DNA of 1,688 bases from Escherichia phage 21. Both the position numbers and the translations under genes were made by a program. The notes beneath the pieces were generated by a model. The model ran no database searches, was not told where the DNA came from, and saw only the letters and a program-made list of their open reading frames with translations. Positions 1 through 1,688 of the stretch are shown here, one piece after another; position 1 is the first letter of the stretch; each line of letters starts with the position of its first letter. The stretch lies in sequence record M23775.1; one strand, 5' to 3'.

Positions 1-12
1 GGGCGGCGACCT
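1..12 (+). other. cos cohesive-end sequence (12-nt 5' overhang of cosN); left terminus of a linear lambdoid virion genome
   Basis: Window begins GGGCGGCGACCT, identical to the lambda left cohesive end as I recall it. The following ~30 nt (cgcggtttttcactatttatgaaaatttt) also closely match lambda's cosN-proximal sequence, with a few substitutions. Confidence 0.8.
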
Positions 13-77
13 CGCGGTTTTTCACTATTTATGAAAATTTTTCAGGGAAAATCGTGTCGGTACTTCTCGAATATAAC

Positions 78-91
78 TTTTTGTTTTTTTT
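78..91. other. T-rich tract (TTTTTGTTTTTTTT), possible intrinsic bend / IHF-assisted bend region of cosB
   Basis: Directly visible run of 13 T in 14 nt. Lambda cosB has an IHF site (I1) between R sites, but I could not find a clean WATCAANNNNTTR match here, so the function is speculative. Confidence 0.25.
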
Positions 92-111
92 AATATTGCA
101 TCCGTAAAGGT

Positions 112-160
112 CCGACATGAAAGTGTCCGAAAATGCCTTTTTCTGGCGTTTTCATGTCGG
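112..160. repeat. 11-bp perfect inverted repeat (CCGACATGAAA ... TTTCATGTCGG) with a 27-bp spacer
   Basis: Arms at 112..122 and 150..160 are exact reverse complements. GTCCGA also recurs directly at 110..115 and 124..129. Candidate pair of oppositely oriented terminase-binding (R-like) sites. Confidence 0.7.
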
Positions 161-177
161 GCCTTGTATTTGATAAT

Positions 178-205
178 GGGTTGTTTTCATGGGGTTGTTT
201 TCATG
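178..205. repeat. perfect 14-bp tandem direct repeat (GGGTTGTTTTCATG x2) ending on the nu1 start codon
   Basis: 178..191 and 192..205 are identical. The ATG of copy 2 (203..205) is the nu1 start by homology; the ATG of copy 1 (189..191) is out of frame with it. Confidence 0.9.
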
Positions 206-751
206 AAGGTTAATAAAAAGAGGCTTGCCGAAATTTTCAACGTGGACCCGCGGACGATTGAACGCTGGCAGTCTCAGGGACTCCCTTGCGCCTCCAAAGG
301 TAGTAAGGGCATTGAATCTGTATTTGATACTGCCATGGCAATTCAGTGGTATGCGCAGAGGGAAACTGATATCGAAAACGAAAAGCTCCGCAAAGAACTG
401 GACGATTTGCGTGCGGCAGCGGAGTCAGATTTACAACCCGGCACCATTGACTATGAACGCTACCGGCTCACAAAAGCGCAGGCAGATGCGCAGGAACTGA
501 AAAATGCCCGTGAAGACGGAGTAGTGCTGGAAACTGAACTGTTTACCTTCATTCTGCAACGTGTGGCACAGGAGATTTCGGGGATACTTGTGCGTGTGCC
601 GTTGACATTACAGCGTAAATATCCGGACATTTCACCATCACACCTTGATGTGGTGAAAACTGAAATCGCGAAAGCCTCCAATGTTGCAGCTAAGGCCGGT
701 GAAAACGTGGGCGGGTGGATCGATGATTTCAGACGCGCAGAAGGCAGCTAA
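203..751 (+). CDS. nu1: terminase small subunit (lambda gpNu1 homolog), 182 aa
   Basis: The translation from 203 begins [12 protein letters not shown]..., against lambda Nu1 MEVNKKQLADIF..., and similarity continues over the full length (for example [28 protein letters not shown] against lambda [28 protein letters not shown]). Length is 182 aa against lambda's 181. Stop is TAA at 749..751. The ORF track shows the frame open from a TTG at 164, and ATG 176 is in frame, but homology supports ATG 203. Confidence 0.9.
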
Positions 752-790
752 GGGTGGATCGATGATTTCAGACGCGCAGAAGGCAGCTAA
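713..790. repeat. perfect 39-bp tandem duplication spanning the nu1 stop and the A start
   Basis: 713..751 and 752..790 are identical (GGGTGGATCGATGATTTCAGACGCGCAGAAGGCAGCTAA). Each copy carries an in-frame ATG for the A reading frame (723 and 762) and a TAA in the nu1 frame. Confidence 0.9.
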
Positions 791-1688
791 TGCAGCCGGT
801 GCGATAGCTACAGGGCTTTTATCTCTCATTATTCCTGTTCCACTGACGACAGTTCAGTGGGCCAATAAACATTATTACCTTCCTAAAGAGTCGTCTTATA
901 CCCCGGGGCGATGGGAAACACTGCCGTTTCAGGTTGGCATCATGAACTGTATGGGCAACGATCTGATTCGCACGGTTAACCTGATTAAATCTGCCCGTGT
1001 TGGTTATACAAAGATGTTGCTGGGAGTGGAGGCTTATTTTATTGAGCATAAATCACGCAACAGCCTTCTTTTTCAGCCCACGGACTCAGCTGCTGAAGAT
1101 TTTATGAAATCTCATGTTGAGCCAACGATAAGGGATGTTCCTGCATTGCTGGAGCTGGCTCCATGGTTCGGAAGAAAACACCGCGATAATACGCTCACCC
1201 TGAAGCGTTTTTCCTCCGGTGTGGGGTTCTGGTGTCTGGGTGGTGCGGCAGCAAAAAACTACCGTGAAAAATCCGTGGATGTGGTCTGTTATGACGAGCT
1301 TTCCTCGTTCGAACCGGATGTTGAAAAAGAGGGTTCGCCAACCCTGCTGGGGGATAAACGTATTGAGGGCTCTGTATGGCCAAAATCCATTCGCGGCTCG
1401 ACGCCAAAAATCAAAGGCTCCTGTCAGATCGAAAAAGCCGCTAACGAGTCGGCACACTTCATGCGTTTTTATGTGCCCTGTCCGCACTGTGGGGAGGAGC
1501 AGTATCTGAAATTTGGCGATGATGCCTCGCCTTTCGGTCTTAAGTGGGAGAAGAATAAGCCAGAAAGTGTTTTCTACCTTTGCGAGCATCATGGCTGTGT
1601 GATCCATCAGTCTGAGCTTGACCAGAGTAACGGGCGGTGGATCTGTGAAAACACGGGCATGTGGACCCGTGACGGCCTGATGTTTTTC
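723..1688 (+). CDS. A: terminase large subunit (lambda gpA homolog), 5' part; ORF runs off the 3' end of the window
   Basis: Hand translation in the frame with codon starts divisible by 3 gives ...[83 protein letters not shown]..., closely matching lambda gpA (..[35 protein letters not shown]...KSARVGYSKMLLGVYAYFIEH...[12 protein letters not shown]). The frame is open from 657 to 1688, checked codon by codon to 1112 and at 1470..1598 and 1680..1688. Candidate starts are ATG 723 (first repeat copy) and ATG 762 (second copy, giving an N-terminal length closest to lambda); ATG 681 is less likely. Start is therefore uncertain by 39 nt. Confidence 0.88.
987..1010 (+). other. Walker A-like ATPase motif KSARVGYT within the A homolog
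   Basis: Codons 987..1010 encode KSARVGYT, corresponding to lambda gpA KSARVGYS, which I recall as implicated in the packaging ATPase centre. Confidence 0.6.

Follow-up and report, generated by a model that had tools for sequence, protein, structure and literature searches.

A phage 21-type cosB in a DNA window with two tandem duplications around terminase genes 1 and 2

The cosB of phage 21, its sites and the residues that determine its recognition have already been published and annotated. The order R3-I1-R2-R1 has been stated for phage 21, and its small terminase subunit, TerS-21, binds cosB-21 (PMC9026076). The critical specificity contacts and clashes involve base pairs 56 and 59 of R3 and residues 20 and 24 of TerS, Glu24 of lambda clashing with the G:C pair at bp 56 of R3-21, and the two phages discriminate against each other by more than 10^3-fold (PMC4669245). 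In the model put forward for this recognition, IHF at I1 folds the DNA so that R3 and R2 can be engaged by a TerS dimer (PMC4669245). Phage N15 has a simple cosB, with a single critical R site and without I1, R2 and R1 (PMC4669245). Its cohesive ends are lambda-like and its R3 is placed equivalently (PMC4669245), as in the DNA analysed here, a stretch of 1,688 nucleotides referred to below as the window, which carries the full complex cosB.

The earlier note on this DNA, made from the letters alone, had described positions 46-202 as a cosB that differs from that of lambda, and had proposed BLAST against phage genomes to find the nearest cos/Nu1 type. This type turned out to be phage 21 itself: the best megablast match among phage records was phage 21, with 100% coverage (X02501.1, M81255.1, and OL657228.1). 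A global alignment with X02501.1, the 1635-bp record of the phage 21 left end with genes 1 and 2, was 100% identical outside two tandem duplications, and a direct test confirmed that the window equals X02501.1[1..191] + [178..737] + [699..1635]. All bases 1-1635 of X02501.1 are present in the window in the same order, and the first and last bases coincide. The variants that set X02501.1 apart from OL657228.1 and M81255.1 are found in the window as well, and its cos and gene 1 are ~99% identical to these two records. Since the window is X02501.1 but for two duplications, the 46-202 region represents the cosB of phage 21. More precisely, judged by sequence, 46-177 is almost certainly the cosB of coliphage 21, its packaging start site. 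This is the best explanation, and we found no evidence to the contrary. By annotation, the cos segment extends to 177, and 178-202 is not cosB but the gene 1 translation start region, present twice through a 14-bp duplication. The earlier note had allowed for a match to a characterised phage with mapped R sites that do not coincide with its motifs, which came true in one half: a phage with annotated R sites does match, and the sites coincide partly with these motifs.

In the following, X02501.1 coordinates equal window coordinates up to 191, and those of M81255.1 are offset by 166. The window begins at the mature left chromosome end, with the 12-nt cohesive end, the right half of cosN, at 1-12 (+ strand), which is the same as lambda 1-12 and is annotated as the cos nicking subsite in OL657228.1. 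I2, annotated as an IHF site adjoining cosN, lies at 30-44 (196..210 in M81255.1), and the 'IHF binding sequence 1' of X02501.1, complement(31..41), falls within it. R3, a putative site for gp1, the small terminase subunit, occupies 50-65 on the + strand (AATCGTGTCGGTACTT), is annotated in OL657228.1 and M81255.1, and has the 21-type bases G56 and G59. I1, the IHF bending site, lies between R3 and R2 at 74-86 on the - strand and is annotated in three records (X02501.1, OL657228.1, and M81255.1). The IHF consensus WATCAANNNNTTR was matched here on the - strand with 1 mismatch; such matches numbered 3 in the window against 1.77 expected, which by itself is not significant. I1 shares its position and 80% identity with the I1 of lambda. 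R2, at 107-122 on the - strand, is a putative gp1 site that is inverted with respect to R3 and R1 (reverse complement TTTCATGTCGGACCTT) and is annotated in OL657228.1 and M81255.1. It is followed by R1, also a putative gp1 site (TTTCATGTCGGGCCTT), at 150-165 on the + strand according to M81255.1 and at 150-166 according to OL657228.1. The label 'putative' is the one that the R boxes of phage 21 carry in M81255.1. Finally, I0, annotated as an IHF-like site, is located at 172-186 on the - strand (338..352 in M81255.1). It corresponds to the 'IHF binding sequence 3' of X02501.1 (175..185) and to an IHF consensus match at 174-186 (- strand, 1 mismatch), and it overlaps with the ribosome-binding site of gene 1, in the first of its two copies.

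In the native coordinates of X02501.1, the Shine-Dalgarno sequence (SD) of gene 1 is annotated at 178-181 and its start at 189. In the window, gene 1 lies at 203-751 on the + strand, is a CDS in X02501.1 as well, and has its own SD copy at 192-195. It encodes the 182-aa small terminase subunit gp1, which belongs to the Pfam family Phage_Nu1 (E = 1.9e-81) and has a winged-HTH at its N-terminus. The list of open reading frames contained a 195-aa frame that starts with TTG 164 (164-751), which was rejected as a longer protein; it is only gene 1 (ATG 203) with its frame continued upstream across the duplicated leader. Gene 2, for the large terminase subunit gp2, starts at 762 on the + strand and is cut by the window end at 1688, where X02501.1 ends as well. 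The window therefore holds the first 309 aa of gp2, which belong to the Pfam family GpA_ATPase (E = 1.4e-57).

According to the earlier note, the first ~45 nt and the terminase genes are lambda-like, and this was confirmed. Over positions 1-45, identity to lambda is 91%, and the 12-nt 5' cohesive end within them is identical, which places the window with the lambda-like cohesive-end phages. The terminase proteins gp1 and gp2 belong to the same Pfam families as TerS and TerL of lambda, with 53% identity of gp1 to Nu1 and 72% of gp2 to gpA, the latter over residues 15-309, whereas at the extreme N-terminus of gp2 0 of 14 residues are shared. The further statement that 46-202 bears no resemblance to lambda was too strong and, as far as architecture is concerned, wrong: order, orientation and spacing of the sites are kept within 1 bp. 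In phage 434 (OL657226.1), a lambda-type phage from the same annotating group, R3 is located at 50-65, I1 at 74-86, R2 at 108-123, and R1 at 151-166, so that R3-I1-R2-R1 order, orientation, and positions within 1 bp are the same as in the window. In BLASTN, lambda aligned to window positions 1-109 with 76% identity. Identity to lambda was 59% over 46-177, with 66% for 46-109 and 52% for 110-177, and the individual sites gave 69% for R3, 80% for I1, 56% for R2, and 38% for R1. The difference is in the R boxes themselves, where the core is TCRTGTCGG in phage 21 and CGTTTCC in lambda (J02459.1), and where bp 56/59 of R3 are G/G in phage 21 and T/C in lambda. On these sequence comparisons, the cosB regions of 21 and lambda have the same scaffold and differ in R-box content.

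The arrangement in the window is that of a 21-type cosB: R3-I1-R2-R1, with three R boxes of which R2 is inverted. R1 matches the reverse complement of R2 at 15 of 16 positions, and R3 matches each of the two at 11 of 16. A perfect 11-bp inverted repeat had been pointed out in the earlier note, and it is indeed there: CCGACATGAAA at 112-122, the core of R2, and TTTCATGTCGG at 150-160, that of R1. Among mononucleotide shuffles of the native 46-191 sequence, 2.9% contained an inverted repeat of 11 nt or more. Further support for the repeat comes from its extension to 27-nt arms (107-133 and 139-165) with 81% complementarity, from R3 as a third copy, and from conservation among relatives.

The protein that reads these boxes also differs from its lambda counterpart. 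The recognition helix of gp1 (residues 17-24) reads RTIERWQS, compared to RTIQNWQE in lambda Nu1, with E, R, and S in phage 21 in place of Q, N, and E in lambda at residues 20, 21, and 24. Differences in the N-terminal DNA-binding region of Nu1 had been claimed before; the helix differs at these three positions, and the first 40 residues as a whole are no more diverged than the remainder of the protein (21/40). When compared with the published lambda-versus-21 determinants, the window has the 21-type bases G56 and G59 at the specificity positions of R3, and its Nu1-family gp1 has the 21-type TerS residues E20 and S24. The lambda-type set, T56 and C59 with Q20 and E24, is absent. The combination of G56/G59 and E20/S24 fits the published determinants as far as the sequence can tell. 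A packaging specificity other than that of lambda, as had been proposed, was correctly deduced, but this is not a case like that of the lambda and 21 pair; it is phage 21 itself. By analogy with the described system, IHF would bend the DNA at I1 (74-86) and so place R3 opposite R2. The resulting R3/R2 assembly would anchor gp2 (762 onwards), and cosN would be nicked just upstream, leaving GGGCGGCGACCT as the end at position 1. The distinction from lambda would rest on the R-box bases (G56/G59 versus T56/C59) and on residues 20 and 24 of the recognition helix (E/S versus Q/E).

More distant relatives retain the same elements. IdasGreatGrand and PhiR5_1, two diverged phages of the 21 type, preserve the R cores and the I1 core, and their spacers vary. 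The cores in IdasGreatGrand and PhiR5_1, respectively, are TCATGTCGG and GCATGTCAG for R3, CCGACATGAAA and ACGACATCAGA for R2, and TTCATGTCGG and TTCATGTCGT for R1, and the TerS helices are RTIERWQS and RTIDRWQT. In PhiR5_1 (L006, 301-510, compared with window 1-205), the altered sites R3 GCATGTCAG, R2 ACGACATCAGA, and R1 TTCATGTCGT occur alongside the TerS substitutions E20D and S24T. These changes may reflect co-variation of site and reader, and possibly a sub-specificity. Closer to phage 21, we compared ~60 IMG/VR contigs with the native gene 1 leader, all of them close relatives, which gives this conservation test low power. Cos variation in these contigs was mostly found in the length of the T-run at 83-88, adjacent to I1, and at positions 92, 98, 99, and 102 of the I1-R2 spacer. 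R3 and R2 were unchanged in all ~60 but one, a contig that is divergent across the whole of 1-57, and R1 varied in four of the ~60, at 155 in two and at 158-163 in two. The 21-type cos is common in E. coli: window positions 1-177 matched 922 of 5,426 complete genomes, 602 of these over at least 80% of the length, mostly with an identity of at least 99%. Genomes of O157:H7 matched only positions 1-41, that is cosN and its flank.

Aside from the duplications, nothing distinguishes the window from X02501.1. The phage 21 records X02501.1, M81255.1, and OL657228.1 share with it the cosN end, I2, R3, I1, R2, R1, I0, gene 1, and the 5' part of gene 2, and they lack the extra 14 bp (178-191) and 39 bp (713-751). 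The first duplication, GGGTTGTTTTCATG at 178-191 (+ strand), is an exact tandem copy of 192-205, reaching from the start of the annotated SD to the end of the gene 1 ATG. Through it arise a second TTTTCATG and a mini-ORF of 5 codons at 189-206 (MGLFS*), the stop of which, TGA206, overlaps the true gene 1 ATG at 203. The second duplication extends from the annotated gene 2 SD to the gene 1 stop, its first copy at 713-751 (+ strand) being exactly repeated at 752-790. Genes 1 and 2 thereby lose their native overlap of 29 bp, and gp1 is unchanged. The 39-bp copy is in frame with gene 2, so that initiation at ATG 723 would add 13 aa to the N-terminus, and ATG 762 gives the native gp2.

Neither duplication junction had a match in the 5,426 complete E. 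coli genomes, including the 602 in which 80% or more of the 21-type cos is covered, nor in phage records, plasmids, IMG/VR viral contigs, GTDB species genomes, or JGI metagenomes. The positive controls of this search worked for E. coli genomes, viral contigs, and phage records. The native gene 1 leader was found in 65 viral contigs, and in 55 of 62 of these the native junction of genes 1 and 2 was found as well. The duplicated units start at the 'pot. SD-sequence' features of X02501.1 (178 and 699) and end with the final base of the gene 1 start codon ATG (191) and of its stop codon (737), respectively, in that record. Because the junctions are absent from all collections and the breakpoints lie on annotation boundaries of X02501.1, the duplications are by far most likely a computational, annotation-driven artefact or a matter of design. 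Such a pattern arises when 'SD to stop' units are concatenated from a feature table, or when overlapping genes are deliberately uncoupled. The first and last base as well as the private variants of X02501.1 are common to both sequences, which suggests that the window was derived from this record via its feature table and is not a separate isolate.

The duplications could also be real, being either a natural variant of phage 21 or a laboratory construct in which the two genes were uncoupled, with the extra GGGTTGTTTTCATG as a genuine part of the leader. This would agree with the fact that gp1 and gp2 are both intact and that each gene has its own SD, as in a deliberate uncoupling. However, neither junction occurs in any collection searched, although the native junction is present in 65 viral contigs. 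Moreover, the breakpoints fall exactly on X02501.1 feature boundaries (178, 699, 737, and 191), the window begins and ends exactly as the 1635-bp record does, and, as read from the sequence, there is no microhomology at either junction. We therefore regard real duplications as improbable, with a natural variant being unlikely. With an artefact or design as the preferred reading, the two duplications should not be taken as biology.

Another way to read the R2/R1 inverted repeat is as an RNA hairpin in a late transcript through cos, acting as an attenuator, terminator, or stability element, instead of or besides providing protein sites. The region 100-175 folds to -35.5 kcal/mol (z = -8.05 compared to shuffles), and a scan reported a terminator-like site at 142-161. 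However, the long stem is not followed by a proper U-tract, and the match at 142-161 is a different, short stem, the one such match being close to the 0.4 expected from shuffles. Over positions 1-300, the scan for promoters and terminators gave counts close to shuffle expectation and no convincing terminator. In addition, there was no Rfam match at gathering threshold, the third copy, R3, is not part of any hairpin, in keeping with protein sites, and relatives conserve the R-box core and not the pairing of the inner stem, as judged by eye. Any inverted pair of protein sites folds in silico, and together with the lack of an Rfam match this led us to reject the RNA element, which we consider very unlikely.

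The earlier note had centred its motif set for cosB on TTTTCATG, reported three times in direct orientation and once inverted. The three direct copies are present on the + strand at 149, 184, and 198, but native phage 21 has only two, the copy at 184 being owed solely to the 14-bp tandem duplication and missing from every natural phage 21-type sequence. Thus, the duplications had inflated the motif count. The copy at 149-156 lies within R1 and is the sole one in a terminase site, and the copy at 198 consists of the spacer and ATG of gene 1 and is not a cosB element. An exact inverted copy does not exist; there is only the 7-mer CATGAAA at 116, inside R2. Of the mononucleotide shuffles of native 46-191, 6.8% had a direct repeat of 9 nt or longer, and for this reason a 9-mer direct repeat alone is weak evidence. 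With R3 lacking the motif and two of its three copies located outside cosB, TTTTCATG was rejected as a recognition motif. The motif set also misses R3 (50-65), the most critical site, and the IHF site I1 (74-86).

In native phage 21, the 9-mer GTTTTCATG is found both in R1 (148-156) and where gene 1 is initiated (197-205 in the window). There is a slight chance that the latter constitutes a weak fourth gp1 half-site, through which gp1 bound at cosB could also occlude its own ribosome-binding site or start codon and thereby autoregulate terminase synthesis. The corresponding sequence of the initiation region, TTTCATGAAGG, matches R1 at 10 of 16 positions and keeps the equivalents of bp 56 and 59. 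If this were true, the duplicated copy in the window would double the element.

A new, third packaging specificity, neither that of lambda nor that of 21 and set by the TTTTCATG motifs, would be in line with the limited identity to lambda (just 59%) and with the three copies in the window, but it is rejected by exact identity to phage 21 (100% to X02501.1 outside the duplications). Of the copies, one was produced by the duplication and a second belongs to the start of gene 1. The conserved core is TCRTGTCGG, which is shared by R3, a site that has no TTTTCATG. Such a specificity is virtually out of the question.

The cosB-TerS pair of lambda and 21 is the classical model of how closely related viruses evolve mutually exclusive packaging while the nicking site and the motor are kept.
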